Virus record (IMG/VR): IMGVR_UViG_3300043540_000465
From: an uncultured virus (IMG/VR IMGVR_UViG_3300043540_000465)
Taxonomy: Duplodnaviria > Heunggongvirae > Uroviricota > Caudoviricetes
Reading direction: 5' to 3' (one strand)
Length of the DNA: 64,000 nt
Within the stretch, counting starts at the first letter, position 1; each line of letters opens with the position of its first letter. Shown in pieces: positions 25,385 to 62,600 of the stretch. The position numbers and the translations under genes are program-made. The notes beneath the pieces are model-generated. The model was not told where the DNA came from. It ran no database searches and saw nothing but the letters and a program-made list of their open reading frames with translations.

Positions 25385-26419
25385 ATGCCGAGACAGTTGA
25401 CCCATTACGTCGTGCAGCTTGGCACCACCGCGGCGGGGACGGTCGAGGATTCACCACCAGGGTACCAGTTTCTAGAGTACCGCGGCCTGCGCTACGGCGT
25501 GCAGCCCAAACGCGGCTGCAGTGACTGTCATGGCAACGGCGTTGTCACGCGCAACAACGAGCAGTCCAAGTGCGACTGTCTGTGGCGACGGCTGTTCGAT
25601 GCGCGGCGTCAAGCGCCGCGTCCTGCCGAGCGGCTGTTCGTGTCGGATGCGCCGGGCATGGTAGAGCAGCTGCGCAAACGTGCCGAGGTGTTGCGCAAGC
25701 AGGTGCTCGAAGCCCGGCAGGCGTACGAAGCCACGCAGTGCAACCGCGACGAGGCGCTGATCAAGCACGACCAGAAGGTCGAGGAGCAGCAGGAGGCGGT
25801 GCGCAAGTGCGAGGAGCAGCACCAGCAGGTGCTGACCGACATCGCGCACCTGGAGAAGAGCATCGACTACAACACCGGGAGGGCCGACGAACTGCGAGCG
25901 CAAGCGCGCGAACTGGAAGTCCAGGTAACCAAGGACAAGGCTACCCTGGTCAATCTGCGCAGCAACCAACTGCACCGAGTCAGCATGGAGCGTGACCGGG
26001 CCGCGAAGAAGGCCCAGACCCTGCAAGAGCAGCGCGAGCGTATCCTGCACGACTGGCAGAAGCATTTGCGCGACCCGCAGAAGGAGCTGCGCCGAGCGGA
26101 GGAGCGGCTCAGCCGAGTGGAACAGCAGCTGCGGCGGCTGAGCATCGAGGACGAACCGGGCGCCGAAGCCGCGGTACCGAAGGAGGCCATGCCACTCACC
26201 ATCGTGACCGCGCCTACGGCCCCGCTGCATGTGCTAGCAGACCCCCTGCAGCTGGTCACGCCGCCGGGGGTGGTGATCACGCACACACCGTCACATGAGG
26301 CCTGCCTAGCCCGCGGCGTGCCCTGCTCTTCCGCGTGTCCGGCAGGCCTGCCCCAACCGGCATCAACCACAGTATCGGAGGCACCGCCGCCACCAACTAC
26401 TACTACGGAAACCGAGTAG
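25385..26419 (+). CDS. Zinc-finger plus long coiled-coil protein
   Basis: AAGGAG RBS; CSDCHG...CDC followed by a heptad-rich region. Confidence 0.75.
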   Translation: MPRQLTHYVVQLGTTAAGTVEDSPPGYQFLEYRGLRYGVQPKRGCSDCHGNGVVTRNNEQSKCDCLWRRLFDARRQAPRPAERLFVSDAPGMVEQLRKRAEVLRKQVLEARQAYEATQCNRDEALIKHDQKVEEQQEAVRKCEEQHQQVLTDIAHLEKSIDYNTGRADELRAQARELEVQVTKDKATLVNLRSNQLHRVSMERDRAAKKAQTLQEQRERILHDWQKHLRDPQKELRRAEERLSRVEQQLRRLSIEDEPGAEAAVPKEAMPLTIVTAPTAPLHVLADPLQLVTPPGVVITHTPSHEACLARGVPCSSACPAGLPQPASTTVSEAPPPPTTTTETE

Positions 26420-26433
26420 AAAGGAGAAGTTCG

Positions 26434-26871
26434 ATGAGCGTGCTCGTATTACCGAACGTCAAGGAAGCCCGTGCGCAGAGCCGCATCCCCGTCGAGACGC
26501 TGGACGGCTACCGCACCATCATCAAGGACGCCGTGACCCGGGCCATTCTGGATCACAAGGCAGCCGTGACGGTGGAGCTGGTCAACGTGGCCGAGGCCCC
26601 GCGGGTGCTGAACCGGCTCATCCGCGAGATCCGCTTCACCGCTGCGAAAGACGACGATGGCAAGGCTAAGTCCAAGACCGGATACCGCGCCTACGTGCCG
26701 TTCGGTGGCGTGGTCGACGGCACCACCGCCGGGACGTCGACGGTCAAGCTCACCATCGAGTGGGGCAAGCTCGATGATATGGTGCTGGAGCTGAGCCCGC
26801 CGCGGCCCGACTTCATGATGCCGGAGGAAGAGGTGGACGAGGCCGACGTGCCGGACGAGGTCGAGGACTAG
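26434..26871 (+). CDS. Hypothetical protein with acidic C-terminus
   Basis: AAGGAG RBS before ATG 26434. Confidence 0.7.
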   Translation: MSVLVLPNVKEARAQSRIPVETLDGYRTIIKDAVTRAILDHKAAVTVELVNVAEAPRVLNRLIREIRFTAAKDDDGKAKSKTGYRAYVPFGGVVDGTTAGTSTVKLTIEWGKLDDMVLELSPPRPDFMMPEEEVDEADVPDEVED

Positions 26872-26880
26872 GTACCACCC

Positions 26881-26944
26881 CCGGACTGCCAGCACGACTG
26901 TCCGTGTGCCTCCACCACCTGCTCCCACCGTGCTGGCAGTCCGG
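26881..26944. repeat. Perfect 16-bp inverted repeat with a 32-nt spacer
   Basis: ccggactgccagcacg (26881-26896) / cgtgctggcagtccgg (26929-26944). Confidence 0.9.
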
Positions 26945-27145
26945 TATCTTGTACTACTCATGGGTCGCTCCGTACCCCCACCCGATGATCTAGCCTATGC
27001 GGTGCTGGCACTGCACCGTCTTACCAAGCCGCACTGCACCTGCTCCCACTGCCGACGCATCTCCACCGTCGTAACGTGGTTGCAATCCTACCTGCAGCGT
27101 CAGACGCGGCAGGCTAGCTGTAAAGACCGTCGCCGCTGAAATTAC

Positions 27146-27227
27146 CGCATTCTTGCAGAGATCTCAAAGGGTCCGTTGTGCCAACTGTCATCGTATTCGG
27201 CACGCTAAGCCGCATGGAGCAGCATGA
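27146..27227 (+). pseudogene. C-terminal relic of an HNH endonuclease
   Basis: RILAEISK / frameshift / VRCANCHRIRHAK; its stop overlaps the helicase ATG. Confidence 0.6.
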
Positions 27228-30064
27228 GTCGTCCTAAGACTGCCGTCCTCGCCAATCGCCTGTGGGTTGCCAAGCGGCTGGTCAAGCCCCAGCACCTCCA
27301 TCCGTTTCGCTACACCGTACGCGAGCGTGTATGGGACGACATGTTTGGCGCGTTCGTGATCATGGACCGCGAGGTCTGTGCTTATCGCGAGTACGCTACC
27401 AAGGTCGGCTTCCACTGCGGTGATCTGGAGAAGCTGCGGTCCACCTTTCGCGGCTTCACCTTCTACGACGACCGGGCGGCGCCGCGACTACCGCTACGCG
27501 GACGCAAGCTCAAGGTACGGCTCAAACTCCACGCCGAGCAGCGCGCTGCAGTGCGGGCGTGGCTGAAGCGCGGCTACGGCATCATCTTCGCTCCGGTACG
27601 GTGGGGCAAGACCATCGCCGCCGCCGCTGCCGCCTTCAAGCTAGGCCTGCGCACCATCATGATGGTGGACAAGCTCTCGCTAGCGCAGCAGTGGCTCGAC
27701 GAACTTCGTAAGTCCAAGCACACCAACCTGCGCAAGATCGAACGCCAGCTGGGGCGCCCGCTAGCAGGCGTGCTCGCGGGCAGCATCAAGCCCGACGCCC
27801 TGCGCAAGCTCAAGCACTTTCCCCCGCTGACCTTCACCACCTTTCAGTCGATCCACTCGCTACTCAAGCGCCGCCCGAAGTTCATGCGGCGGCACCGTAA
27901 TGATTTCGGCTTGGTAATCGTCGACGAGTGTTTCGTTTCCGGTACGCCAGTGCTACTAGCTGACGGTACTACCAAACCTATTGAGCAGGTCGTTGTTGGT
28001 GATCTGGTGTGGACGCCTGGCGGGCCGCGCCCAGTCAGTAACATCATGCACCGGCGTGGACGTATCTTGGAAGTGGTATCGGATGACGGCAGCAAGGTAT
28101 ACTGTACCGCCAATCATCCGTTTGCTACCGTAAGCGGTACGTTCGTGGCCGGAGGCCACCTCGATGGCTCGCAGGAGATTATCAGGTGCTGCGTGCGCCA
28201 AGTGCGGGAAACCGATGCGTCCAGACAATCGCAGGGATTACCACAAGTATTGCCAACCCGCCGCGTTCCCGCGGGGAAGATGCCCGTACTGTCATCAGCC
28301 AATACTACCAGCAGCACGTGGCGGGCATGCACTGTGTTGCGAGAAGAACCCCCATCGCTTGACAGGTGGGGACGAAGTTTGGAACAAGGGCTTAACTCGC
28401 GCGACAGATGCTCGGGTGGATCGGGTAGCTCGGATGAAAGAGGGTGTGCCTGCGCCGTGGGCACGACGCAACATGCTCAATCACAATCCAATGAAAGACG
28501 AGAAGGTACGACGGAAGGCGCGGCGAGGACTGCTGCGTGCTATTCGGGAGGGTCGTGTAGTACCCTACGGCAATCGGCGACTGTACGGCAACGGGAGATC
28601 CGCTACCCCGCTGGAACGGTAGTGCCAGTCGCGACTGCTGCGCTGGGGCTTCCGGCGCGAGTTAGCAATTCCCACCCATCAATTGTGGGGCCAGGGATAC
28701 CCGACGTGCTACAAGGTGGACTTCGGACACCGCCGGTTGCAGATCGCGGTGGAGATCGACGGCAGCAGTCATCTAAACCGGCGCCATCTGGACCGCAAGA
28801 AGGACCAACTACTGGTGAAGCTAGGATGGTACGTGCTGCGTTTTCCGATTACCGACTTCCCAACGGCGATCTTGTCTGTGGTACGGCATGCCGTGCGCGT
28901 GCGACGCCGATCTCATATGAGGCAGACGTCTTCAATCTAGAAGTAGTTGAGATACCACTCTACGTAGCGGGAGGTTTTCTGGTACATAACTGCCATCATA
29001 CCCCCGCCATCACCTACGCCCACGCCATCTCCTTCTTCAACGCCGCGCACCGCTTGGGCGTGACTGGTTCGATCAAGCGGCGCGACGGCAAGCACATGGT
29101 GATGCACGACATCATGGGACCGGTCACCGGCATTGGTACCCAAGAGCAGATGCCGGTGACGGTCTACCTGCACTTCACCGACGTCAATGTGCGAGCGCAG
29201 ACCTCGTGGACCACCATGATCTCCAATCTGTGTCGCAGCCTGCCGCTGACCGACGCGGTGTTGGAGCAGGTGATCACCGATGCCGAGCAGGGACGCTACG
29301 TCATGGTGCACTCCGAGCGTAATCAGCACTTGGAGGATATGTGCGCCCGCGTACGACGACTGGCGCCGCATCTCAACCCGCAGTTCGTCCACCAAAAGGT
29401 CAAGGTGCCGGTGCGCAAGCAGTACGTGCGGCAGATGGAGCGGGGCAAGATCAAGGTGCTGTTCGTTGGCAACGTGTTCATGGAAGGCATGACCATCAAG
29501 CGGGCCGACTGCTTGCACCTGTTCCCCACCACGACCAACCCCGAGGTGGTGAAGCAGCGTACCGGGCGCGTGCGCACGTTCGTGGCCGGCAAGCCCCGGC
29601 CCATCGTGCGGCTGTGGTGCGTGGGTGGGCACGGTGGCCTGTTTGCGGGCCGGACCGTCCATCTCAAGTACTTCAAGGAGCATCCGCACGACTTCCATAT
29701 GCGGACGGCAACGCTGGCCGAGGTGGTAGGCAACACCGCCACGCGGAAACTTCAGCAACGGGAACGGCGGGCGGCACGCACCTGCAGCCAGTGCCGACGC
29801 TTCATTCGCTGTCGCACCACCAAGCACATTCGCGCGCAAGGATCGGTATGCTCGCGCTTCAAGGAGCACCAGGTACCCGCCCAGCTCAAGCTGCAGTGGT
29901 TGGTGCACCACCGCCATCGACTGAACGAGTACGGCCAGCGGATGATCAGTAGCTTCCGCCGCCAGAGCGCGAAACGGCTGTCGGTGGATCAGTTGCGCAT
30001 CCTGAACGAGGTGTACATGGATCTGCTGAACAACCAGCAGACCACCAAGCTGCCATCCTTGTAA
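27224..30064 (+). CDS. Superfamily 2 (DExH) helicase containing an intein
   Basis: APVRWGKT motif I; VIVDE|CH motif II split by the intein; GVTGS motif III; QRTGRVRT motif VI. Confidence 0.9.
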   Translation: MSRPKTAVLANRLWVAKRLVKPQHLHPFRYTVRERVWDDMFGAFVIMDREVCAYREYATKVGFHCGDLEKLRSTFRGFTFYDDRAAPRLPLRGRKLKVRLKLHAEQRAAVRAWLKRGYGIIFAPVRWGKTIAAAAAAFKLGLRTIMMVDKLSLAQQWLDELRKSKHTNLRKIERQLGRPLAGVLAGSIKPDALRKLKHFPPLTFTTFQSIHSLLKRRPKFMRRHRNDFGLVIVDECFVSGTPVLLADGTTKPIEQVVVGDLVWTPGGPRPVSNIMHRRGRILEVVSDDGSKVYCTANHPFATVSGTFVAGGHLDGSQEIIRCCVRQVRETDASRQSQGLPQVLPTRRVPAGKMPVLSSANTTSSTWRACTVLREEPPSLDRWGRSLEQGLNSRDRCSGGSGSSDERGCACAVGTTQHAQSQSNERREGTTEGAARTAACYSGGSCSTLRQSATVRQREIRYPAGTVVPVATAALGLPARVSNSHPSIVGPGIPDVLQGGLRTPPVADRGGDRRQQSSKPAPSGPQEGPTTGEARMVRAAFSDYRLPNGDLVCGTACRARATPISYEADVFNLEVVEIPLYVAGGFLVHNCHHTPAITYAHAISFFNAAHRLGVTGSIKRRDGKHMVMHDIMGPVTGIGTQEQMPVTVYLHFTDVNVRAQTSWTTMISNLCRSLPLTDAVLEQVITDAEQGRYVMVHSERNQHLEDMCARVRRLAPHLNPQFVHQKVKVPVRKQYVRQMERGKIKVLFVGNVFMEGMTIKRADCLHLFPTTTNPEVVKQRTGRVRTFVAGKPRPIVRLWCVGGHGGLFAGRTVHLKYFKEHPHDFHMRTATLAEVVGNTATRKLQQRERRAARTCSQCRRFIRCRTTKHIRAQGSVCSRFKEHQVPAQLKLQWLVHHRHRLNEYGQRMISSFRRQSAKRLSVDQLRILNEVYMDLLNNQQTTKLPSL
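27929..28990 (+). mobile_element. Intein (354 aa) inserted in the DECH box
   Basis: N-terminal CFVSGTPVLLADG, block B CTANHPF, block F VFNLEV, C-terminal LVHN, +1 residue Cys. Confidence 0.95.
28164..28940 (+). pseudogene. Vsr/DUF559-like endonuclease nested in the +1 frame inside the intein, interrupted by TAG at 28620-28622
   Basis: GGAGG 28151-28155 then ATG 28164; CxxC fingers, VWNKG and NPMK (NUMOD3-like), TPLER*, YKVDFG...IAVEIDGSSH...DRKKDQLLVKLGWYVLRF. Confidence 0.85.
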
Positions 30065-30075
30065 AGTAGAGAGCC

Positions 30076-30696
30076 ATGCCTGAAGACCTGTCGGCGAGCC
30101 GGGACAAGTTCATAGCGCTGTGTCGACGGGCGCACATCCCGTCACAGTACTGGTTCGACAAGAAGTGGCGGCGTGCCCAGCCCAGCTACTACAAGACCAC
30201 CATCGCCTACCACGAGGGTGAGTACGTGCGCCTACGGGAGCACGAGCAGGCGCAGTGGTTGCAGCGATTGGCTACCGACATCACACTGCTCCAGCAGCCA
30301 CACTTCCTGGCCTTCCTGGGCGATCACTTTCCCGACCTCGCTAATCGCGTGGCCTTCGGCTTGCTGGTGCGGGCGCTGCTGCACGGAGATAGGGTACGCG
30401 CGTTCGCCGCCAGCGCGCTCAGCGTGCCGCATGGCGACGCCGTGGACGAGGTGCTGGCGTCCCCGCCCAAATACACCGCGGTGCTGATCCACGGAGCGCA
30501 CACCGACGACGATCAGACGCGTCGGCAAGTCATCCGCGACTTCGTGCAGCTGCATGATCGGGCGCTGCGGCTGCTGGTAATCCACGGTCACGATCCGCTC
30601 ACCTACCTGCACACGGTGCTAGGTCTCAACCCACACGGGGTGTTCTACCTACCCACGCGCGGTACCATCTTCAAGCTAGGCACCGAGAAGCTATAG
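30076..30696 (+). CDS. Hypothetical protein, possibly a degenerate helicase-loader-like fold
   Basis: Lies between the SF2 helicase and DnaB; no intact Walker A. Confidence 0.55.
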   Translation: MPEDLSASRDKFIALCRRAHIPSQYWFDKKWRRAQPSYYKTTIAYHEGEYVRLREHEQAQWLQRLATDITLLQQPHFLAFLGDHFPDLANRVAFGLLVRALLHGDRVRAFAASALSVPHGDAVDEVLASPPKYTAVLIHGAHTDDDQTRRQVIRDFVQLHDRALRLLVIHGHDPLTYLHTVLGLNPHGVFYLPTRGTIFKLGTEKL

Positions 30697-30704
30697 GGGC
30701 ACGC

Positions 30705-30959
30705 ATGTTGTTCATGGGTAATGGTGAGCACTCAAGGGCGAGGTGCTGGAGGCTAGCGAGTACCATGGTCGAGCTACTCATAGGTATAGGTGGCTGGCAG
30801 CAGCGCATGAGCACCAAAGCCCCACTGAGCAAACCGCCGGAATGGGAGGCAGAGCAGCGGCAGTTGCAACACTGGCGAGACCAGGACGAGTTCTTCTTGC
30901 TGGATGTGGCAGCAGCACTGGGCTACGAGTTCCAGGGGCTCAAGCAGGGGAAGAAATGA
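30705..30959 (+). CDS. Hypothetical protein
   Basis: Fills the gap; overlaps the next start. Confidence 0.5.
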   Translation: MLFMGNGEHSRARCWRLASTMVELLIGIGGWQQRMSTKAPLSKPPEWEAEQRQLQHWRDQDEFFLLDVAAALGYEFQGLKQGKK

Positions 30960-31429
30960 TGGCGCACCGGTACCCCGCACCCCACGTCCGCGACACCAGT
31001 CGGGCCGCCTACCACCAGATCCTGCGCGATGGTATGCTGTCGCGATCGCGCCGCCGTGTCTACCAATGGCTGTATCACCATGGCCCTGCGACCGGGCGCC
31101 TAGTCGAGCGCGATGCGGGCTACCGCCATGCCAACAAGCGTCTCCCTGAGCTACGCGACCGCTTGGTGGTGCGCGAGGTGGGCCGGGCTACCTGTCCAGT
31201 CACTGGCAAGGTCGCGATCTGGTGGGATGTTACTAGTAAGCTGCCGGTCGAACCCAAGCGCTACCACGAGTACCGCGTGCTGCTGCGCGTACGCCCCAAG
31301 CAGGATCCGTGGGGTACCGCCAAGCACCTGCACCGCCAGCTGCGGCGCGATCTGCGAGGCGTGCAAGTATCTGCCACGCTCGACGTCACTCTGCGCACGG
31401 TACGCCGCACCGTCGGGACCGTGCTGTAA
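30956..31429 (+). CDS. Winged-HTH-like DNA-binding protein
   Basis: TSRAAY...RVYQWLYHHGPATGRLVE...KRLPELRDRLVVREVG. Confidence 0.55.
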   Translation: MMAHRYPAPHVRDTSRAAYHQILRDGMLSRSRRRVYQWLYHHGPATGRLVERDAGYRHANKRLPELRDRLVVREVGRATCPVTGKVAIWWDVTSKLPVEPKRYHEYRVLLRVRPKQDPWGTAKHLHRQLRRDLRGVQVSATLDVTLRTVRRTVGTVL

Positions 31430-31438
31430 AGTCTACCA

Positions 31439-32785
31439 ATGCGACTGCGTAATCCCCACGCCGAGTTGCAGGCCGTCATCACCATTCTGGACGGTCCCAC
31501 CACAGTCTCGGCCAAGCTGCTAGGTATGGTGCGCGAGGAGCACTTTGGCTACGGCCCTACCCACGAGATCATTACCGCAGTCTATCGACACATCAGCCGC
31601 CGCAAGGCCGACGAACCGGCCGAACTACCGTCGGCGCGTTCGTTTCGGTTCACGCCCGGTCTCAGTGACATCGCCCGCGATCTGCTGGGGCAGAAGCACA
31701 AGCCGGTACGGCACGAGGCTGACATTCCCGCGTTGTACGACACCCTGGAGTACTTTCGCAAGGTGCGAGTACTGCACGGCTTCGTCCGTAATGTCGCCAA
31801 GCAGATGAGCGGCGCGGCCGGAACCGTAGACCTGACCCAGGTGCGTGAAGACATGGTGCAGACCTCCGAGCGGATGATCCTCCGCGACGAGAGCACGGTC
31901 TTTACTCACATCCCCGGCAAGGGCGCAGCCGAGGCGTTCAAGGAGGCGTTGGAGCATACCCAGCTGATATCGTCGCCGTTCAAGAACTTCAACGACATGG
32001 CGGGAGGCTTCGCGCTAGGTGACCTGCACATCCTAGCCTCACATCGTTCCGGCGGCAAGTCAGCTATGCTCAACTGCCTAGCCGACTACTTCTACTCCGA
32101 GCTGAACCTGTCGACCGCCATTGTGCAGTTGGAGATGAGCCGGGCGACCCAGGTGCGTCGCCTGCTGGCGAAGAAGATCAAGTTCAAGCACAGCACACTA
32201 CGGCAGACGCCATGGCATAAGCTAGATAAGGAAACCCGCCGCAACCTGCAAGAGGCCTATCGGGCGCACTACAAGCACGGCGTGAAGCATGGGTGTGCCT
32301 TCGACATCATCACCCCAGGCAACATCTCCGCGATGGGGCTGGAACTGCTGCTGCGGCCGTTCAACTATCGGGTGATCTTGATCGACTATCTCAATTTGAT
32401 GGAGCTGGATGGCCAACCACACGACAACGAGGCGTCTCGCCTTGGTGCTACCGCCAAGGCGTTGAAGCACATGGCCAGACGCCTGAACGCCGCGGTGTTT
32501 GCGTTGACGCAGCTGGACATGGCGGAGGACAAGATCCGATACAGTCGGGCCATTGAGGAGCATGCGGACTTGGTGTGGGCGTGGCGGTGGGGCAAGGAAG
32601 AGCAAGAAGGGGGCAGAGTGACCGCGATCAATCAGATGAAGACCCGGCACTTTGAGCCGTTCGTGTTCTACCTCAAGCCGGTCCTAGACTACATGACGTT
32701 CGAACCGGCGACCGAGGATGAGGTGATGAGCATGACTACGCCCCAGGACAAGAAGTTCACCAAGAGCATGGAAGGGAACATCTAG
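31439..32785 (+). CDS. DnaB-like replicative helicase
   Basis: GFALGDLHILASHRSGGKS, QLEMS, ILIDYLNLM, LKHMARRLNAAVFALTQL, SRAIEEHADLV. Confidence 0.85.
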   Translation: MRLRNPHAELQAVITILDGPTTVSAKLLGMVREEHFGYGPTHEIITAVYRHISRRKADEPAELPSARSFRFTPGLSDIARDLLGQKHKPVRHEADIPALYDTLEYFRKVRVLHGFVRNVAKQMSGAAGTVDLTQVREDMVQTSERMILRDESTVFTHIPGKGAAEAFKEALEHTQLISSPFKNFNDMAGGFALGDLHILASHRSGGKSAMLNCLADYFYSELNLSTAIVQLEMSRATQVRRLLAKKIKFKHSTLRQTPWHKLDKETRRNLQEAYRAHYKHGVKHGCAFDIITPGNISAMGLELLLRPFNYRVILIDYLNLMELDGQPHDNEASRLGATAKALKHMARRLNAAVFALTQLDMAEDKIRYSRAIEEHADLVWAWRWGKEEQEGGRVTAINQMKTRHFEPFVFYLKPVLDYMTFEPATEDEVMSMTTPQDKKFTKSMEGNI

Positions 32786-41371: not shown

Positions 41372-41471
41372 GCCGGAGACGATAGCCTGCACAATGCGTC
41401 TAGATGGTATCAGATCTCCCGTGGTCTCATAGTGTGTGGAACCTATCACGTAACCTCAGAAAGGAGTGAGC

Positions 41472-42269
41472 ATGTCCCATCCGCACGCGCATATGATTCA
41501 TGGTCAACTACGGCATCTCGGGGGCTGGCGTCGCGACACCCCCGATCACCGCGACCGGCACTACATGGCGATCGCGCCGGCGATGGCACTACCGTCCCGC
41601 GGTGACACCAGTCAGTTCGACTCACCGATCGAAGACCAGGGACCGATCGGCTCGTGCACGGCCCACGCCTCTACCAGCGGTATGGAGGTGCTGTACCCCA
41701 AGCTGCTATCCAAGCCCGCGCCGCAGCTATCACGGCTGTTCGTCTACTACATGACTCGCACGGTCTACGAGCATGTGGCGCCAGACGATGACAGTGGCTG
41801 CGAGATCCGCAACGTCATCAAGTGCCTAGTCAAGTACGGCACCTGCCTGGAATCGCTATGGCCATACACCAACCCCGAGCAGCAGTTCGCGGTGGCGCCG
41901 CCCGCCGAGTGCCGGCAGGATGCACTCAACCATCAGGTGCTAACGTACTACCGTCTCACCGGGCTGCGGCAGATCCAGCAGTGCCTGGCTAGCGGCTATC
42001 CGGTGATCGGAGGCTTCGCGGTGCCCGAGAGCGCCATGGACGAGCACGTCGCCCAGGATGGCATCCTGCACTTTCCCCAGCCTAATGAGGCGTTCGTGGG
42101 TGGCCACGCGGTACTGTTCGTGGGCTACGACAACACCACGCGGCTGGTGAAGTTCAAGAACTCGTGGGGACCGGCGTGGGGCCAGAAGGGCTACGGCTTC
42201 CTGCCGTACGACTTCTTCATCGACGGGCTGGCCGACGACTTCTGGACCGTACGTCGCGAGGAGATGTAG
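41472..42269 (+). CDS. Papain-like (C1A) cysteine peptidase
   Basis: DQGPIGSCTAH, LSRLFVYY, GGHAVLFVGYD, KNSWG. Confidence 0.92.
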   Translation: MSHPHAHMIHGQLRHLGGWRRDTPDHRDRHYMAIAPAMALPSRGDTSQFDSPIEDQGPIGSCTAHASTSGMEVLYPKLLSKPAPQLSRLFVYYMTRTVYEHVAPDDDSGCEIRNVIKCLVKYGTCLESLWPYTNPEQQFAVAPPAECRQDALNHQVLTYYRLTGLRQIQQCLASGYPVIGGFAVPESAMDEHVAQDGILHFPQPNEAFVGGHAVLFVGYDNTTRLVKFKNSWGPAWGQKGYGFLPYDFFIDGLADDFWTVRREEM

Positions 42270-53224: not shown

Positions 53225-56200
53225 ATGGCCATTCGCGCACTGCTCGCCTGGGATTCCAACGACCTACCGTCGACGTGGAATGACCGCTTTCGCAGCATCT
53301 TCAAGGTGGGCGTCTATTCTGGAGGTACGTCCACGCCCGCGGCCACGCCACTGCACGTCACCGTCAGTCCCTTCGTGGCCGTGTCGTTCGACGGCATGGT
53401 GGTACGGGACGATGACGAGGCCCACGACATCCCGCTGACCGACAACGCCGACCAGCTGATCTGCCTGCTGGCCAAGTACCGCGAGTTCGACGATCCGATC
53501 CTGCAGTGGCAGGTGATCCTAACCTCCAGCCTGCCGGCGCATCCGGACAAGGACTACCTGATCATCTTCGCCCGCGCCATCACGGTCGGTGGCGTCATCA
53601 CCAGCTTGGAACCGTGGGCTGAGCATCGCATCGATGGTGTGAGTCGTCACCCGCTACGGCCCCCGGTGGCCACCACGGGTGATCTGCCGCTCACTGGCAA
53701 CGTCGTGGGTGACGTGATCCCGGTGCTGGCCGATGCCTCGCTGTGGATCTGGGAAGCCGACAACACTTGGCATCCACACTACGCCAACATCGATCCGTTT
53801 GTGCTGACCATCACTTCGGCGCTGATGGGCTACAGCGAGAGCCTGCGCTATGGCAACGGTACCGGCATCATCGCGGGCGGGTCTGCGTACGAGGAGAAGC
53901 CCGGCAGCTGGCCGACGCAGGACGGCAGCCTGTCCGACTACCGCACCGAAGTCCGTGCCCAGGTGCAGGCGGGGTTGCAGAACCTGGAGCTAGCCGTCGA
54001 AGGTTTCTCGGCCATGCTCAACGGGCATTTCCTTAAGACCTACCCGGTGACGCTGCCGCTAGTGCCGCAGCCCACCTCGGGGGCGTGGCCGCAGTACGCG
54101 GTGTGCCTGGAGTACTACCGGGAGCAGCTGACCACCGATCCCGATGTGACGACGCCGTACTACAAGCGCTACACTACGCGGGCGCTGACCGCCCCCGGTG
54201 ATCCGGTAGATGCTACCATTCTCGATCTGCTGCCCATCGTGGACACGCAGGAGCAGAACACCGAGCTGAACTTCGACTACTTCCCCATCGAGATCACCGG
54301 CAAGAACGTGTGGGTGCGGGCGCGATGGCAGTTGACGGTGAAGCCCATCAACAGCACGCTGGCGAATTCGTCGCATGTACCCCCGCAGCACCTGCACAAC
54401 TACTTCAAGGTTGATCCGCTGGCGGTGTGGGGTGGCGCCACCACCTACGCCCTAGAGACCGGCGGCCCTGGCCCCAATCCCTATTGGGGTGAGAATCTAT
54501 ACATCGGGACCAAGGCCGACGCCTACCAGGGGATCGCGTACATGATCCCGCTGTTCGTGGTGCGCACGGATGGCACGCTGCCGCTACCGACTACGCAGTC
54601 GCCGTGGACCTACCCCGCCGGCGGTACGCAGCTGCGCTTGGGGCTATGGTCAGTGTACCCGCGCGTGCGCGACAACCTGCAGCAGCTGGGCACCGATCAT
54701 CAGCTGCTCAAGCACTTCTCCGAGCTGGCCGAGCAGCGCAGCCGGCGCTGCTCTGGCTTCGTAGATTTTGGTGGCTACCGCTGGTCGGGTGGCGCGGCCA
54801 ACTCGGTGTGGTGGGAGCGGGAGAATCTGCAGCCACCTGTGGAGTATGGTCCCGAGGCCAAGCACGTAGCTGTGCAGGTGGATGGCTTCGTCGCGCGTCT
54901 GCCGTTCCTGGCCCAGCAGGTGTTCATGGCGACGCTGCCAGCGCCGCCCAGCGAACTGGGATCCTATCGGCGCGATCTGGTCTACCTGACCATGCGGCGC
55001 GTGCTCAATCCCATTCCCACGACCATGCTGCAAGCAGCCACTCCCCCCAGCTGGTTCGTGGACACCGGCATTCCGGTATCGTACTACGAGTACGTCAACG
55101 ACGTAACCAACACGCCGGCCAAGCGGCTGGCGTCAGGCACGCTCAAGTACCAGCTGCGTGTAGAAGTTGCGGAGGCGGGTGATGCCTTCGACGAGTTCTC
55201 CGCGTTCTACCAGTACAACGGCGAGGCGCCGAAGCTGGATGTCGATGGTCGACCTCTGGCACGCAATCTCAACGGCGTGCTGTATCACCGCCACGCCAGC
55301 GATCCGGGGTTGTGGGTGGGGGTAGAAGACCTGCGCAACTTCGTCGATCAGCGGCCGGTGCTGCAGAGCGTGTGGCCCAGTGAGTCCGAGCCTACCGCCA
55401 TCGAGCCGCCGGTAGCCAACGACACCGCACGCAATCGCAACGATCAGCTGATCACCGACGGCATGGTCTACGCCATCCCTCTGGCGCTGGTGCATCGGCG
55501 CAATACCGCGACGTACGACCCCTGTGCCAACCCTAACGGCACGACGGCTAGTCGGAACGCGCAGTCCTACCGACCGGACGGCGCCATCGACGCCACGCTG
55601 GTGCTGTTGCGCGAGATCCTGGACCTGCGGCACCTCGTCGAGCTGGTGGGTACCGACTTGGAGTCGGTGCTATACCGCAGTCTCGATCTCAACGTGCAGG
55701 GCAAGCTGTTCACCTCGTTCGGCTTCGACGAGCTGGGTGGCGTCGTCGTGCGCGATCGCTTGGGCGCGGAGATCCTACGCACCGAGCAGCTGGGCGGCGA
55801 TCCGTGCTCCGATGAGCTGGCGCCACCGGATGGCAAGCGGCTGCTGTGGTCCGACAGCGAGGAGTACTACTCACGCCCGCTGCATCAGCGACTGGATGAT
55901 GTGCAGCTGGGACAGGGCTTTGATCTCAGCATTCAACCGTCCGGATGGTGGGGAACCGATCCGACCTACAACTCGCAGCTGGCGCTGCAACCCTACACGT
56001 TGGAAGGGCGCAATATTGTCGGGCAGGTCGGCACGCCGGCCAACGGTACTCCGCCTAATGCCGGTACGCCAGTGCCAGATGGCGGGGCGCTGCGGTTGGT
56101 GCGCGGCAGCGTCATGTACATGCTGGAAGATGGGCTGTCGATTCCACCAGCCTACGTGATGGCCTACCCCAACATCGCCACGCGGCGCGTGGCTGTGTTC

Positions 56201-59200
56201 GACACCATGGATTGGGAGAGCGCTGCACCCACACCCAACCTCGATGGCTGCGAGCTGCGTCACCACAGCACCGCGGCCTACGAGCTGTTGGAAGAGGTGG
56301 CGTGGGGCATGTACGTCAGTACCTCCCCGGATCTGCGCACATGGCTGGGCTATGCCGGCGCCGATCCGCAGGATCTGACCAACTACCACGGCACTGAGCT
56401 GTTCACCGCGGTCTACGAGCGCTACTACGGGCGCGTCAATCACGGTTTGAAGTTCACGCCGACGCGGGCGCTGCTGGGCTTCCGCCACGAAGACATCACA
56501 CAGCCGCAGCCGGCGACGGTGGACGACTACGTGTTCCCTGACATTCCGCATCTGCGGTTGCGGGTGAAGCCGACCAAGGTGGTCGAGTACGCGTTCTACC
56601 AGTGGAACGGCAGCGTGTGGAACACGGTCAGCGCGCCCCCGGATGCTACTATCAGACCGCTGGATCCAGTGGTGGGGCAGACCGTGCACGTCACCACGCC
56701 GGGACCCTACGAGGGCTACTGGGTGTGGAACGGCGCGGCCTGGGATCTCATCGCGGTGGTGACGACGCTGCCGGTCTCCGGCACCTACGTCGGCATCGTC
56801 GTGCACTACATGGAGCCGCTGGGCAACATCCTGTGGAAGTTCACCATCCCGTTCAGCGATCTCTACCGCGCGACGGCCGAGCAGCTCTACGGTGATCCCA
56901 CGGCCAACATCGATCACCTGGGCTCGCTGCTCAGCTCGTGCGTGTTCCCCATCGAAGTCAACGACGGCGAGACGCCGGTGGCCCTGTACGGCTACGAGGT
57001 GCACGGCAGCGACTCGGTCGACATCTACGTCAAGTCGTTGCCCGAATCCACCAACATCGACTACTCCGGCTACGGGGCGGATCCGCAAGCTCACCCCTGG
57101 CCCGACTTCAACCTGGGGCGCACGGCGCTGGCGATGCCGGCCGTCGACGCTAACAAGTACTACAACGTGATGGTGGGCGTGCGGTTCGATCACCTGTTCA
57201 CCGGCTACCGCCTGGGGAAGGCTAATCGGTCGGTGGAAGCGCTGTACGAATGGCGCACGCAGTACCTCTACAACGGCGAGGGGAATCGCATCATACACTC
57301 GCACACCAGCACGTTGGATTCAGTCTTCAACACCGCCGTGGTGGCCCGCGACGGCGTCATCCTCGCTGCGCACGTCTACCGCGTGCCAACGACCTCGGAG
57401 AAGCTGGCCGGCAAGACCAAGAATCTCTGGGTCACTAATCATCGCCTGGCTCCGTCGGGCTACCTGGGCACCAACTTCGTGCCCTTCTGCTTGCTGTTTG
57501 ATCAGGATGGCTACATCAACCCGATCGGGGCGCCCGATCACAACGTCTACATGGTGCACTACTTGGTGCATCGGCCGGTCAAGACGTGCGAGCGTGTGCT
57601 GGTCAACTATCTGTTCGCGCCGTACCAGGGCATCGTGCGGGACAACCAGGACGCGATGCTGAAGCTACAGGGCAAGGCGCTGCGCGTCAGCGACATCTTC
57701 ACCACCGGTTACGGTGCCTATGCGCCGTGGCTGAACTACTGGCTGATCGACCCGCTGTGGACGCAGCCGACGCCCAACCAAGGCGTGCGCACGCTGGAAG
57801 ACGCGTTCGAACGCGCGTGGTATCCCACGCTGCGCCATGATCTGTACTTCAACTACGCTAACCTGCTGGGGTACCTGCCCTTCCCCAAGCTCGACAGCAT
57901 CGGCATCATCGTCAAGAATCAGAACTGCGGGCAGCTGGAGGGGTGGAACATCGACGAAGGTGACATCAAGCCACCAGTGTTCCGGTCGCAGGTGCTACCG
58001 CCGGGGCTAGTGCGGCGGCATCGCCGGCCCGACTTGTTCTACTCGCTCTACGGCTTCACCGACCCTCTGCTGGCCGAGCTGGCAGCATTCAACCCCTTCG
58101 GGGGCGAGCTGACGATGTTCATCATGGGCCTGCTGGGGCCGAGCCGGGCGGTGCCTTGGTTCGCCTACTTCCGTAACTCGAAGACTAGCACGTTGAACTT
58201 AGGCTACAACCAGCTGCACCAGATCAACGGCTTCGGCTATCCGTCGACCGATCCGCTGCAGGCGTTCCATTCGCTGCTGCGGTTGTCAGGAACGCAACAG
58301 GCCGCGTTTGCCAACGACAACATCGTGCCGGGGCGGCGCGGCTGGTTGTTCACCGAAACCTACGCCTCGCACGATCTGATCATGCAGCTACCGAAGATCC
58401 ATCCGCAGATCTGTCAAGTGCGGTACCCGTCGGGCAATGTGTTCTTCGGTCCCGATGGCGACTACTGGAACAGAGTGGCCGCGCCGGACGGGACGGGCGC
58501 GCAGCAGTTCCCTGGGCAGTTCGGGGTGGCCTGGGCCGGGCAGGACATGGACTACCCGCTGATTGGGGTGGGAAGGGCCGAAGATCCCGACAGCCACCAG
58601 CTGGAGCTCAGTCTGCTGCAAAACCCACCGGAGGAGCCGACGCAAGTCACCCTGAGTGGTCGCAGCATCACGCCGCCCAGCTTGGTGCGCGCCTCACTCT
58701 ACAACTACCTTGGCATGCTGCTGCAGCATCCGAGCGGGGATCTGCTCCTGCAGATCACGTGCGGCTACTCGTGCAACCCCGTATTCTCTCCGGTCGGCGG
58801 CATCTACGACGGCTTCGTGCCGCTGTATCGCCCGCTGGTGCGCGACAACCAACTGGATCGGCACAAGAGTACCTACGGCTACGAACCGTACCTGCTACCG
58901 GATCCCAACGGCGCGCTGGCACCGCTGGCGAATGCCGGTACCTACTGCCTGTCGACCCCGCCGGGGCCGGGGCCGGGGCACGACGTGCCGTTCACGGTGT
59001 GCATCGACAAGTTCACCGTGACGGGGCAGGGCTCCAACATCACCGGGCACTGGGGCGGGCTGCCGACGGTGCCACCGCAGATCATGGTGGGCATCTGGAC
59101 CAGCGAGGCCGAGCGGCTGGCGCACCCCTACAACCCAGATCGTATCATTAAGCAGGGTGTGAACAACTTTGGTGGTGTCGGTAATCCGCCAGTCTTCTCG

Positions 59201-59668
59201 ACGTTTGCCTACGACGCCAGCGCGCTGCGGGGTACATACCATGTTCAAGTTACGGCAATGCCGGGCAACAGCGTCTCAGTCACGATCACCAAGCCCGACA
59301 GCACCACCGTCAACCTGGGGCCGATTGCCTTCAACCCGTACAACCCCGGCGATTCAGTGGCGTTCGTGATCGACGCGCATCTCACCATCACCACTACTGT
59401 CGGCATTGTGGTGACGTGGAATGCCTCCACCAACTTCAACTACCTGCTGCATACGTCGGCAGTGGGCAATGTGCTCGATCCAGGGGTGACGTGTACCTGC
59501 AATCCTACCGGTGATTGGTTGGTCGTGTTCAGCCTCAACGTGTATCCCGGCGTGGTCACGGATCGGGTCGTGGTGTGGCTGGTGGACGGCGCGCACGCGG
59601 CTGACAACTACCTGCCGACCGATCGACTGTGCGATCCGGCGGTCGCGACCATCGGTGACATTGACTAG
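53225..59668 (+). CDS. Very large tail fibre/baseplate protein (2147 aa)
   Basis: Position; YRRDLVYL, DGMVYAIPLALVHRRN, RPDG...ILDLRH motifs resembling large myophage baseplate/fibre proteins. Confidence 0.65.
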   Translation: MAIRALLAWDSNDLPSTWNDRFRSIFKVGVYSGGTSTPAATPLHVTVSPFVAVSFDGMVVRDDDEAHDIPLTDNADQLICLLAKYREFDDPILQWQVILTSSLPAHPDKDYLIIFARAITVGGVITSLEPWAEHRIDGVSRHPLRPPVATTGDLPLTGNVVGDVIPVLADASLWIWEADNTWHPHYANIDPFVLTITSALMGYSESLRYGNGTGIIAGGSAYEEKPGSWPTQDGSLSDYRTEVRAQVQAGLQNLELAVEGFSAMLNGHFLKTYPVTLPLVPQPTSGAWPQYAVCLEYYREQLTTDPDVTTPYYKRYTTRALTAPGDPVDATILDLLPIVDTQEQNTELNFDYFPIEITGKNVWVRARWQLTVKPINSTLANSSHVPPQHLHNYFKVDPLAVWGGATTYALETGGPGPNPYWGENLYIGTKADAYQGIAYMIPLFVVRTDGTLPLPTTQSPWTYPAGGTQLRLGLWSVYPRVRDNLQQLGTDHQLLKHFSELAEQRSRRCSGFVDFGGYRWSGGAANSVWWERENLQPPVEYGPEAKHVAVQVDGFVARLPFLAQQVFMATLPAPPSELGSYRRDLVYLTMRRVLNPIPTTMLQAATPPSWFVDTGIPVSYYEYVNDVTNTPAKRLASGTLKYQLRVEVAEAGDAFDEFSAFYQYNGEAPKLDVDGRPLARNLNGVLYHRHASDPGLWVGVEDLRNFVDQRPVLQSVWPSESEPTAIEPPVANDTARNRNDQLITDGMVYAIPLALVHRRNTATYDPCANPNGTTASRNAQSYRPDGAIDATLVLLREILDLRHLVELVGTDLESVLYRSLDLNVQGKLFTSFGFDELGGVVVRDRLGAEILRTEQLGGDPCSDELAPPDGKRLLWSDSEEYYSRPLHQRLDDVQLGQGFDLSIQPSGWWGTDPTYNSQLALQPYTLEGRNIVGQVGTPANGTPPNAGTPVPDGGALRLVRGSVMYMLEDGLSIPPAYVMAYPNIATRRVAVFDTMDWESAAPTPNLDGCELRHHSTAAYELLEEVAWGMYVSTSPDLRTWLGYAGADPQDLTNYHGTELFTAVYERYYGRVNHGLKFTPTRALLGFRHEDITQPQPATVDDYVFPDIPHLRLRVKPTKVVEYAFYQWNGSVWNTVSAPPDATIRPLDPVVGQTVHVTTPGPYEGYWVWNGAAWDLIAVVTTLPVSGTYVGIVVHYMEPLGNILWKFTIPFSDLYRATAEQLYGDPTANIDHLGSLLSSCVFPIEVNDGETPVALYGYEVHGSDSVDIYVKSLPESTNIDYSGYGADPQAHPWPDFNLGRTALAMPAVDANKYYNVMVGVRFDHLFTGYRLGKANRSVEALYEWRTQYLYNGEGNRIIHSHTSTLDSVFNTAVVARDGVILAAHVYRVPTTSEKLAGKTKNLWVTNHRLAPSGYLGTNFVPFCLLFDQDGYINPIGAPDHNVYMVHYLVHRPVKTCERVLVNYLFAPYQGIVRDNQDAMLKLQGKALRVSDIFTTGYGAYAPWLNYWLIDPLWTQPTPNQGVRTLEDAFERAWYPTLRHDLYFNYANLLGYLPFPKLDSIGIIVKNQNCGQLEGWNIDEGDIKPPVFRSQVLPPGLVRRHRRPDLFYSLYGFTDPLLAELAAFNPFGGELTMFIMGLLGPSRAVPWFAYFRNSKTSTLNLGYNQLHQINGFGYPSTDPLQAFHSLLRLSGTQQAAFANDNIVPGRRGWLFTETYASHDLIMQLPKIHPQICQVRYPSGNVFFGPDGDYWNRVAAPDGTGAQQFPGQFGVAWAGQDMDYPLIGVGRAEDPDSHQLELSLLQNPPEEPTQVTLSGRSITPPSLVRASLYNYLGMLLQHPSGDLLLQITCGYSCNPVFSPVGGIYDGFVPLYRPLVRDNQLDRHKSTYGYEPYLLPDPNGALAPLANAGTYCLSTPPGPGPGHDVPFTVCIDKFTVTGQGSNITGHWGGLPTVPPQIMVGIWTSEAERLAHPYNPDRIIKQGVNNFGGVGNPPVFSTFAYDASALRGTYHVQVTAMPGNSVSVTITKPDSTTVNLGPIAFNPYNPGDSVAFVIDAHLTITTTVGIVVTWNASTNFNYLLHTSAVGNVLDPGVTCTCNPTGDWLVVFSLNVYPGVVTDRVVVWLVDGAHAADNYLPTDRLCDPAVATIGDID

Positions 59669-59686: not shown

Positions 59687-62600
59687 ATGAGCTGCCCGAT
59701 TCGGCCCCGGTCTATACCTGAAGGTCTCCCTGGGTGTCCATCTGAGCCGGTACCTTCGGTGGGCGATTCGTCGACTATCGTCGGCGATCCCATCATTCGT
59801 GACCTCTATCCCACGCCGGGGGAGACCGCCATACTCACCAAGTACCATCCGCTGTACGTCTACTTGGTGGATCTGTTCGCGCACGGCAGTCCCAGCCCGC
59901 TCTACTTTGGCGAGGCCGCCATCTTCCACGACATGAACGGCGTTCCCTGGTGGCCGTTCGGCCAGCGCATGGAGCCCGCGGAAGGATATCGTGTAGGACT
60001 GGCGCGCACCGACTTCTACAACATCATTGGGCTGGCTACTACCAGCAGCTACTGGGACGGCTTCGACCCGGAGCGCATGAACTTCGCGCTCATGTGGGCC
60101 ATCCGCCAGTACTATCTCACGACCTACCACGTGGATCTGGCACGCTTCCACGTTGAGATCCGTGCGGGAGCCCCGTACCGCATCGACGATCCACTACAGC
60201 CGGCGCGGGAAGCTATTGTGCTGCGCGAGCTGCCACAGCACTGCACCGAGCGGGAGTGCTTCATCCCCGGCGAAGTAGATCCGATCAATGACTACCGCTA
60301 CTACGTGGCCGACCAGTTGATTGCGAGTCTGCTGCGGCACTTCACCGACGGCATGACGGGTCTTACCTCGTGGGGGCGGCGGCTCAAATGGGCAGGTACG
60401 TTCAACCCCTCATTGGCGCGCGGCTATCTGCACAACGGCACTAGCTACTTGAACCAGCTACAAGACGGCTGGGAGCTGCATCTGGGCTGCAAGTTGTTCG
60501 ACCAGCTACTGCGAAACTTCGTGGGCCTGCGCAACACCGATCCCGCGAGCTACGATCCGGCGGCGACCCCACCCGTGGATCCGACGGATCCGCCGCCGCC
60601 TAATTACCATGCCGCGTGGACCAACTTCGTGCACTTCGGCCGTGGAACAATGGCGCAGTGGCTGCGCTACTGGATCGAGTTCAATACCGGGTTGCGGGAA
60701 GACACTGGCACCTTCCTCACCAGTGGCGAGCGCTTCAACTATGGCACTACACAGCTGTATCCACTAGTCCATCCCTCACCGCTGCCACGGCTGTACCACA
60801 CGGCAACGTGGTTCAACACCGGTAACTTGGTGTTGGTGGCAGGCGGCTGGAGCAAGGGTCACGTGATCAATACCGCGGATCTCTACAGCGTGACCTTCGG
60901 CGTCTGGACCAACACCAACGACATGCTACAAGCTCGCGCGCTGCACACGGCCACGTGGTTGCTCCTCGCGCCGGACCAGATCCTGGTCACCGGCGGCATC
61001 AACGACGATGGCATGCCGCTGGCGAGCACCGAGGCGTTTGATGTTGTGGCGCACACCTGGAGCCCGCGGGCGCCGATGGCCCATGCGCGCGTGCAGCACA
61101 CGGCCACTTATCTAACGGACGTCAGCGGCGACAAGGTGGTCGTGGTCGGCGGGTGGGGTGGTATCAGCGGTGGGATGTCGGCGACCGATTGCTCGCAGAC
61201 TTACGACATCGCCACCGATACGTGGAGCGCGCCCGTTGCCCTGCACCAAAGTCGCGCCTTGCACGCCGCCATGAATATAGCGACCGGACAGCTGTTCGTG
61301 TGCGGTGGCGTGGGTGCTGATGGCGTTCCGACTGCGTCGACCGAGATGTATACGGTAGCCGGGGGGTGGAGCACCAGAGCGACCATGCCTGACGCGCGCT
61401 ACGGCCACACGCTCACCACACTCATCGGTCCCAGCTCCCACACCTACCTAGTGGCAGTAGGTGGCTACGGTCCCGGTGGCATCGTGCTGGATTCCGCCGC
61501 CGCCTACCGCACCGACAACGACACGTGGAACATCACGCTCAATCCCGCCCCAATGAACTACCGACGGGCGCTGCACAGTGCGGCCCAGATCGACGATACT
61601 AGCTTGCTCGTCTACGGCGGGGTAGACGAGGTGGGCAATCCGGTGGCCCAGGCTGAGATCTACAACACTATAACCAACTCCTGGACGGTGGTGCCGCAAG
61701 TCACCGCGCGCAAGGGCGCGACGGCCACCAGCCTGGGCACCACGGGCGGTGGGGGTACGGTGGACGTGCTGCTCGTCGGCGGCGACGACGCGGCAGCCGG
61801 TCCCGTGAGCAAGAAGCTGCACTGGGCGATGCAAACCGGCGTCGGTGATCTCGGCGCGCTGCGTACCGCACGCGTCGTCACCGTGCGCCCCCAAGACGAC
61901 TGGCGTATCAGCGACGACGTCGCCACGGTACTGGCCGAGTACCAACGGCAAATCTGCTCCCACGCGGTGGTGGACTACCACATCAAGTGGGTGCGGCGGT
62001 GGGCGTGGGGCATTGGTGGCGCCGGCAACAACGAAGGCTACGTCGACGGTCGCAGCATCAACTATGGTGGGGGAGCGGTGCGGTTGCTTGAGGCGCCGCC
62101 GCCGACGATCGCGCAACCGGCACCGCCTAATCCGAACCCGTGGTGGTACATGCCGTCGAACCTGATCCATCGCCACGTGTGGGCGCCCGACCTGCGACGA
62201 TGGGACTGCAATCACGACTTCCCATGGTCGCCGTCGCAGGGCAACTCCAAGTACTTCTTGATGTGCCCGTGGGTGCTCAACTGGACTGACTGGCACGCGC
62301 TCGACGCGCTCTGCCGGAGCGCACCCGACTGGGCCACCGCGCTGGTGCAGCGCGAGCTAGAAGCAACGCAGCTGGATGCCATGCTCACTGCATGGCCGGC
62401 GTGGCGCCGTGTGCTAAATGCCTACGCGAGCACCTGGGCGGTGCAGCCGCCGTGGAGCAACATCAACGCTTATCTGGACGTCGAGGCGTTCCAGTTGATG
62501 GGCAAGGCGCCAGAGGCAACCGTGGACCCGCGCAACACGCCCCCACCGGATCCGGCGTGGACGGACTCATCGGTGTCCGCGACGTTTACGCTCCGCGAAC

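Follow-up and report, generated by a model that had tools for sequence, protein, structure and literature searches.

The stretch analysed here, referred to below as the window, comprises 64,000 nucleotides (nt) of an uncultured Caudoviricetes virus (IMG/VR record IMGVR_UViG_3300043540_000465). A superfamily 2 (SF2) helicase gene in this window is split at motif II by an intein, and a second gene, encoding a Vsr-like homing endonuclease, lies within the intein in the +1 reading frame. This element is best explained, with a probability of about 0.8, as a 'non-canonical' intein made of two overlapping genes, a splicing-competent intein and a knocked-out nested nuclease, at an early stage of decay within the homing cycle. 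An initial annotation of this DNA had described a dual-coded gene within an intein within a gene, and the endonuclease indeed proved to be a separate +1 open reading frame (ORF) and not an in-frame domain.

The helicase gene and its intein are organized as follows:

27224..30064, + strand: SF2 helicase gene, encoding a precursor of 946 amino acids (aa), about 592 aa after splicing
27224..27928, + strand: N-extein, ending in the Walker-B/motif II sequence VIVDE; GC content at third codon positions (GC3) 0.81
27929..28990, + strand: intein of 354 aa, from C1 to the terminal HN
28991..28993, + strand: +1 extein Cys (TGC), where empty alleles have Val (GTG)
28991..30064, + strand: C-extein, GC3 0.85

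The gene was assigned based on its Pfam domains (ResIII, 41.5 bits; Helicase_C, 39.1 bits; DEAD, 30.5 bits) and on four insert-free homologues of 592–602 aa (P0003 and P0005–P0007), and both exteins were aligned with empty alleles. Across the insert, the protein reads VIVDE/CFVSGT...TANHPF...VFNLEV...LVHN/CHH, with slashes marking the junctions. Since the four intein-free homologues and the empty-site loci L085 and L086 read VIVDEVHH and are colinear over the junction, the intein can be placed exactly at 27929–28990, with the +1 Cys at 28991–28993. The insertion point is thus DE/VH, which splits the Walker-B/motif II of the helicase. On the DNA level, the empty site of L085 and L086 is GTCGACGAG/GTGCATCAC and the occupied allele is GAG/TGTTTC...CATAAC/TGCCATCAT. 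These junctions confirm that the DECH box of the helicase is split by an intein with normal splicing blocks, as first annotated. The splicing residues are all there, namely C1, T-A-N-H in block B, H353-N354 and C+1. Judging from these intact motifs and from a helicase that is 93–95% identical to empty alleles, the intein is most likely splicing-competent.

Within the intein, three parts can be distinguished:

27929..28195, + strand: N-terminal Hint subdomain, residues 1–89, with block A (CFVSGT) and block B (TANHPF)
28196..28795, + strand: intein-frame insert, residues 90–289, rich in S, G, R, A, T and P, predicted to be disordered
28796..28990, + strand: C-terminal Hint part, with block F (VFNLEV) and block G (LVHN)

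A model generated by AlphaFold from 33 aligned family inteins gives a predicted local distance difference test score (pLDDT) of 84–97 for the N-terminal part and of 72–95 for the C-terminal part, with 95 for residues 330–354. These parts share 62% identity over 90 aa and 45% identity over 66 aa, respectively, with the mini-intein of homologue P0004. In a Foldseek search, the model matched 45 PDB chains at E ≤ 0.001, the best being the MchDnaB-1 and gp41-1 inteins, and among the matches listed all were intein or other Hint-fold domains. The gp41-1 intein, the second-best structural match, presumably comes from the fractured-gene data set discussed below. The insert between both parts has a pLDDT of 34–56, has no Pfam match and is absent in P0004, in line with the low-information sequence described earlier for this frame. 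Over 28164–28940 the intein frame contains no stop, so the claim that it stays open over 777 nt holds, and the third frame contains 11. The insert is probably a shadow of the +1-frame gene, with the absence of a stop codon as its sole requirement.

The nested gene itself consists of the following elements:

28151..28155, + strand: putative Shine-Dalgarno (SD)-like GGAGG, inside the intein codons A-G-G
28164..28622, + strand: 5' piece, 152 codons, with two CxxC zinc ribbons and a helical NPM/GNG region
28620..28622, + strand: in-frame TAG nonsense codon closing the 5' piece
28623..28940, + strand: 3' piece, 105 codons, with the Vsr/DUF559 (EDxHD-type) core

The GGAGG is located 8 nt before the ATG at 28164, as the initial annotation had seen, and the +1 frame is closed by a TAA at 28131–28133, 10 codons upstream of this ATG. 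Together, the SD-like sequence, the ATG and the upstream TAA suggest that the nested gene is translated independently. Its frame terminates at the TAG at 28938–28940, within the L-E codons of the block F sequence NLEV. This end had been called correctly, but the 777 nt do not form one ORF because of the TAG at 28620–28622.

Of the domains that had been proposed for the +1 frame, the Vsr/DUF559 core is well supported, as DUF559 (PF04480) matches with 37.1 bits against a Pfam cut-off of 20.6 (E 3e-9). The zinc ribbons were recovered as weak Pfam matches, and apart from these no NUMOD3 or other DNA-binding family was found at E ≤ 1 in the 152-aa piece, which aligns with 44 homologues. In the search of both frames that the annotation had suggested, DUF559 was thus the model over its cut-off; the Hint models stayed under theirs and NUMOD3 was not matched. 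An alignment of 45 nuclease sequences contains the invariant motifs GNG, P, YK.D, DG..H, D.KK and L..GW..R. The catalytic set E197, D199, H203 and D210, mapped to the EDxHD motif by alignment position and not by structure superposition, is present and is kept in 43–44 of 44 relatives. When the stop is read through, AlphaFold predicts the nuclease with a pLDDT of 87–96 over residues 150–250. The top Foldseek match of this model is 3R3P, the catalytic domain of I-Bth0305I (probability 1.00, E 4.6e-3, template modelling score 0.62 by target), and Vsr (1CW0) and 3HRL are also among its matches. A profile of the 45 sequences searched against the PDB likewise retrieved 3HRL (4e-11) and, as a weak match, 3R3P (0.0099). 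The open frame as such, taken from the window alone, is modest evidence and suggestive only, since 62 of 9438 sliding 259-codon windows are stop-free in the +2 off-frame of other genes; the comparative evidence is decisive.

The TAG at 28620–28622 coincides with the nuclease domain's first helix and splits the gene into 152 and 105 codons, at a position where 44 of 44 homologues are continuous. As TAG is the commonest stop in the window, ending 17 of the 36 long ORFs, and no tRNA gene is present in the window, this codon is regarded as a genuine stop, and reassignment of TAG was rejected on the same grounds. Among 30 highly conserved nuclease columns, 28 are kept in the window copy, the changes being G141Y (G kept in 41 of 44 relatives) and N229I (N kept in 44 of 44). 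The stop and the two lost conserved residues suggest relaxed selection in this copy. Most likely, the endonuclease gene was inactivated recently, within an intein that is still intact, and nuclease function has probably been lost here.

The layout is far from unique to the window. A profile-guided scan of viral contigs yielded 155 nuclease relatives, and 80 loci were kept for counts. In 77 of these (58 unique ORFs, locus GC content 0.29–0.68), the nuclease ORF is wholly spanned by an open host frame and lies at +1 relative to it. The nuclease ORFs in these loci measure 160–340 codons and the spanning frames about 400–2789 codons. All 44 representative spanning ORFs have Intein_splicing matches at E ≤ 1e-3 that are split around the insert, 23 of them over the Pfam cut-off; 35 of the hosts are helicase-type and nine are DnaX clamp-loader-type proteins. 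Because the intein and the nested gene share this offset across many host genes, the composite was most likely acquired in one piece. An invasion of a mini-intein by a free-standing endonuclease, as first proposed for this DNA, is for the same reason unlikely as a local event.

The three exceptions among the 80 loci are L055 and L075, in which the nuclease is in frame, and L072, in which it is a free-standing gene abutting a 606-codon ORF. Both in-frame cases are UvrD-type proteins: in L055:2846-5356, DUF559 occupies residues 450–514 within an Intein_splicing match at 267–556, and in L075:2612-5407, residues 503–565 within 309–612. In-frame, +1-nested and free-standing forms thus coexist within one nuclease clade.

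The position of the composite is also conserved. The N-terminal boundary of the intein reads hhDE/C followed by F or M in 32 of 41 loci, immediately past the acidic residue pair of Walker-B, just as in the window. This boundary was called by a regular expression, which failed to give DE/C in nine of the 41 loci: it was mis-set in L008, L009, L016, L017, L019, L074 and L079, found no candidate in L056 and gave EE/C in L060. It was mis-set in L057 too, where DE/C is seen by eye. At the other end, 44 of 58 nuclease ORFs use TAG as their stop. In 54 of 58, 4–23 codons separate the stop from the downstream end of the intein, and its typical setting is CTA-G in '/LVHN' or 'N/LEV'. In L005, L013, L017 and L047, the nested ORF extends 7–30 codons into the C-extein, so that part of the host helicase is dual-coded. 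In most relatives, the +1 frame opens a few codons upstream of its own first start codon.

Selection on the nested frame was assessed in variable alignment columns, counted by codon position in three groups of related loci (L027, L037 and L015), not in the window copy. In the exteins and in the part encoding Hint-N only, the variable columns fall at host position 3, with counts at positions 1/2/3 of, for example, 13/14/51 and 5/3/28 in the L027 group. In the overlap, they fall at host position 1, which is position 3 of the endonuclease, with counts of 32/6/5 in the L027 group, 26/6/7 in the L037 group and 138/81/64 in the L015 group. The stretch in which the nuclease tail runs over blocks F and G shows hardly any variation in the three groups. 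In addition, the Tyr codon of the YK[VIL]D motif is TAC in 58 of 58 ORFs; TAT would give TAA in the host frame. The codon-position counts indicate purifying selection on the endonuclease frame in the relatives.

In the L027 and L037 groups, the element varies less than the flanking exteins (in L037, 39 of 617 insert columns are variable vs 122 of 300 N-extein columns), a pattern that fits recent spreading among host genes that are themselves diverged. Intein residues 1–60 were compared with the nuclease core in 32 elements by a Mantel-type test, which gave a Spearman r of 0.23, reached by 6 of 2000 permutations; in this comparison, distances are saturated and related rows inflate the result. 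The direction of this correlation is weakly positive for co-inheritance of both parts.

Empty, mini-intein and occupied alleles of the helicase were sought as the annotation had advised, and the first two were found. Five homologues were retrieved (P0003–P0007). Empty alleles are P0003 (592 aa), L085 and L086, with 93–95% identity, as well as P0005–P0007 (593–602 aa, about 70%) and L087; the proteins P0003 and P0005–P0007 are without residues 236–589. Homologue P0004 (790 aa, 64% identity) carries an intein of about 198 aa at the same site. This mini-intein can more simply be seen as a deletion derivative from a later stage of the homing cycle, and the empty alleles would represent the uninvaded or cured state. 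The GC3 of the element is 0.56–0.64 vs 0.81–0.85 in the exteins, and as these values are far apart, the element has probably not been resident for long. Compared to L085 and L086 (93% identical), the extein residues beside the intein read RNDF vs RNAF (27890–27928) and HHT vs HHS (28994–29002). A co-conversion tract left by homing could explain these differences, as could plain divergence.

Several observations weigh against the proposed reading of the element. Just one codon disables the nested gene and all four EDxHD residues are intact, so that read-through or a two-piece enzyme is thinkable. The SD-like sequence and the ATG sit in intein sequence that is conserved by the P0004 mini-intein protein too (GG[HQ]LDGS), and may thus pre-date the endonuclease or be incidental. 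Block F carries an N (VFNLEV) where many class-1 inteins carry a D, an N that is common to most of the 33 aligned family inteins. The Hint-type hidden Markov models all score under their cut-offs: Hom_end_hint with 29.9 bits (cut-off 32.1), Vint with 23.8 (27) and Intein_splicing with 17.8 (35.8). Finally, as no close endonuclease-bearing relative was found, the frame-specific selection is seen in more distant members of the family and not in the window copy.

The most serious alternative is that the nested endonuclease is still active, either by low-level read-through of the TAG at 28620 or by cooperation of the 152-aa DNA-binding piece with a separately started nuclease piece. A single stop in an otherwise open frame, a core that folds confidently if read through, and the retention of the four EDxHD residues and of 28 of the 30 highly conserved columns all speak for such an enzyme. 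Yet genuine stops in the window are most often TAG, no suppressor tRNA is encoded there, and N229, invariant in 44 relatives, is lost. Furthermore, the first in-frame start past the stop is a TTG at 28683 without an SD-like sequence upstream, and a product begun there would lack the nuclease domain's first helix. We therefore consider an active enzyme unlikely. Even less probable is production of the endonuclease by ribosomal +1 frameshifting, as a fusion to the N-extein and N-intein, instead of by internal initiation. The gene does lie inside a translated ORF and its ATG falls in conserved intein codons, as such a fusion would allow. However, only 10 open +1 codons precede the ATG at 28164, a GGAGG lies 8 nt upstream of it, and the +1 frame of the relatives mostly opens just ahead of the first start. 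Free-standing homologues exist as well, namely L072 and the proteins P0018–P0021 (152–267 aa), which are protein sequences only and whose lengths fit stand-alone genes.

Two further alternatives would dispense with a nested gene altogether, and both have very little left in their favour. The +1 offset might be mimicked by two compensating assembly indels in an intein with an in-frame nuclease domain, a form known in this family from the UvrD-type helicases of L055 and L075. This artefact, which the initial annotation had named as a possible refutation, is hardly credible, as 77 of 80 loci, drawn from many samples, show this +1 offset too. The contig that another assembler produced from run X1, though probably representing the same sample, is also identical over 27800–29100 (1301 bases, 0 differences, no gaps, k-mer depth about 240). 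Moreover, the TAA at 28131–28133 closes the +1 frame just before the ATG, and the host frame is free of stops throughout. The +1 ORF could also be an open frame that arose by chance, with the insert being a decayed in-frame domain or a linker, since long spurious ORFs are common at 61% GC, as the 62 of 9438 open off-frame windows illustrate. Against this stand the DUF559 match over the curated cut-off, the 155 viral relatives, the confidently predicted Vsr-like fold and the purifying selection in the relatives, which leave this explanation extremely improbable.

Under the preferred reading, that of a splicing-competent intein with an inactivated nested nuclease, the helicase frame would yield a contiguous class-1-type intein that is made with the helicase, excises itself and leaves DECH at motif II. 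The N-terminal 89 and the C-terminal approximately 65 residues would form the Hint fold, with the approximately 200 residues between them as a disordered loop. The +1 frame would encode a homing endonuclease of the free-standing type, in which an N-terminal region for DNA binding, made up of zinc ribbons and helices, precedes a C-terminal Vsr-like EDxHD nuclease. Two products would be made from the host mRNA of intact relatives, the precursor and, from an internal start, the nuclease. This nuclease would then cut intein-less alleles, with ...GTCGACGAG/GTGCATCAC... as the putative cleavage target, and repair would copy the whole element in. With its TAG at 28620 and two lost near-invariant residues, the window copy might represent an element shortly after loss of the nuclease.

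Beyond the window, we lean, with some reserve, towards a broader interpretation, in which the +1-nested layout is the ancestral, selected state of a large and mostly unannotated composite clade. This clade would be specialised in the Walker-B 'hhhDE' of P-loop nucleoside triphosphatases (SF2/SNF2 helicases and DnaX), would move as one unit between unrelated host genes and would have its stop hard-wired into blocks F and G (CTA-GAx or CTA-GTx). If so, the window would show one full homing cycle in a single helicase lineage, from the empty site through the freshly killed endonuclease to the mini-intein. The family also shows that overlapping genes can stably combine a contiguous intein with a nuclease of the free-standing type. 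The layout is the intermediate state between two arrangements, the fractured gene with its split intein and the classical intein with an in-frame nuclease, both extremes of which occur in the same clade (L072 on the one hand, L055 and L075 on the other). In annotation, gene callers give the host ORF only, so that such endonucleases are missed and the inteins misread as 'decaying' or 'mini'. The three-state allele series (empty, nonsense-mutated occupied and mini) is useful for dating steps of the homing cycle, and the splicing domain, being related to fast gp41-1-type inteins, may interest protein engineers. Current understanding is not overturned, and the weight rests on the family-wide evidence and the allele series, not on the decayed copy.

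The concept of an out-of-frame intein endonuclease is already published, and the initial annotation, which regarded descriptions of this architecture as few and asked for a literature check, overrated its novelty. According to Gosselin, Arsenault & Gogarten (bioRxiv 10.1101/2025.01.02.630785), non-canonical inteins carry their endonuclease in another frame or on the other strand, including antisense LAGLIDADG, antisense VSR-like and, in actinophages, frame-3 endonuclease VII-like genes. The same text credits the first non-canonical inteins to Gorbalenya 1998, calls out-of-frame layouts rare and describes VSR-like nucleases as otherwise known only with split inteins. In Phillips, DeSimone & Gogarten (bioRxiv 10.64898/2026.09.14.751524), a +2-frame LAGLIDADG gene with frame-specific selection is reported for cyanobacterial dnaX inteins. 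In these preprints, the proposed origin of such elements is a free-standing endonuclease gene invading an intein. The element described here resembles the published cases in its contiguous intein, its disordered and domain-free middle part, the endonuclease in another frame, selection on that frame (here seen in the relatives), and the coexistence of empty, mini and full alleles. It differs from the reported cases in that the nested gene is a sense-strand +1 Vsr-like/EDxHD gene with zinc ribbons, located at the Walker-B DE site of a helicase. Unlike the rarity stated in the 2025 preprint, the +1 layout is the rule in this nuclease clade (77 of 80 loci). In the literature searched, which did not extend to the supplementary tables of the two preprints, neither a sense-strand Vsr-like gene nested at +1 within a contiguous intein nor a preference for the Walker-B site is described.

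According to Dassa et al. (2009, PMC2677866), fractured genes have split inteins that flank a free-standing Vsr-like endonuclease gene. They share with the present element the nuclease family, phage-like DNA, replication and repair genes as hosts, the same strand, and an endonuclease 3' end that overlaps the coding region of the C-terminal intein. The host frame of fractured genes is, however, described there as broken, with a stop past the N-intein, a gap of 27–51 nt, a new start for the C-intein and trans-splicing. In contrast, the window, with its single 946-codon ORF, and 77 of 80 relatives have an unbroken host frame and a contiguous, presumably cis-splicing intein. Taylor et al. (2011, PMC3239194) characterised I-Bth0305I (3R3P), which is encoded by a group I intron in phage recA and is the prototype of the homing endonuclease family that they named EDxHD. 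Its region for DNA binding is N-terminal and its Vsr-like nuclease, carrying the conserved residues E, D, H and D, is C-terminal, as in the nested gene, but it has NUMOD-type motifs and no zinc site. The window gene, in contrast, has two CxxC pairs and no NUMOD match; it also sits in an intein instead of an intron, overlapping it in another frame, and a stop codon disrupts it.

Comparisons with other phages placed the helicase far from cultured representatives. Megablast of 26000–31500 against cultured phages gave no match, and tblastn of the helicase against them gave distant helicases only (identity ≤29%), none covering 80% of the query. Scans of viral contigs for the helicase, with the C-extein alone or with alignment A1, found no relative, and no second copy of the intein or of the nuclease is present anywhere in the window. 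The loci L001–L004, from a first scan with the nuclease piece alone, were left out of all family counts: L001 and L002 were dropped because they are spanned by a 310-aa ORF with an HNH match and without an intein match, L003 because it has no fully spanning frame, and L004 because it fell under the E 1e-3 level in tblastn.

Some host helicases carry further features. A second intein is found in L015:1939-5382 and L050:2299-5454, with LAGLIDADG_3/Hom_end upstream, and L067:614-4783 has a second Hint_2 match at residues 989–1032, beyond the intein with the nested gene. The intein-bearing helicases of L006, L020 and L067 are fused C-terminally to an N6_N4 DNA methylase domain.

The window as a whole has a GC content of 61%, with nearly all long ORFs on the + strand, and contains phage-type genes for an FtsK/HerA-like ATPase, a DnaB-like helicase, baseplate J and others. 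The sole public sequencing run in which the stretch was found bears the label of a hot springs metagenome and is probably its origin. At 41466–42269, inside the phage-like gene block, lies a gene for a papain-family cysteine protease (Peptidase_C1, E 9e-12). Downstream of the baseplate-J-like and other structural-looking genes lies a 2147-aa ORF without a Pfam match (53225–59668), and after it comes an ORF of 1175 aa that contains multiple Kelch repeats (59687–63214).

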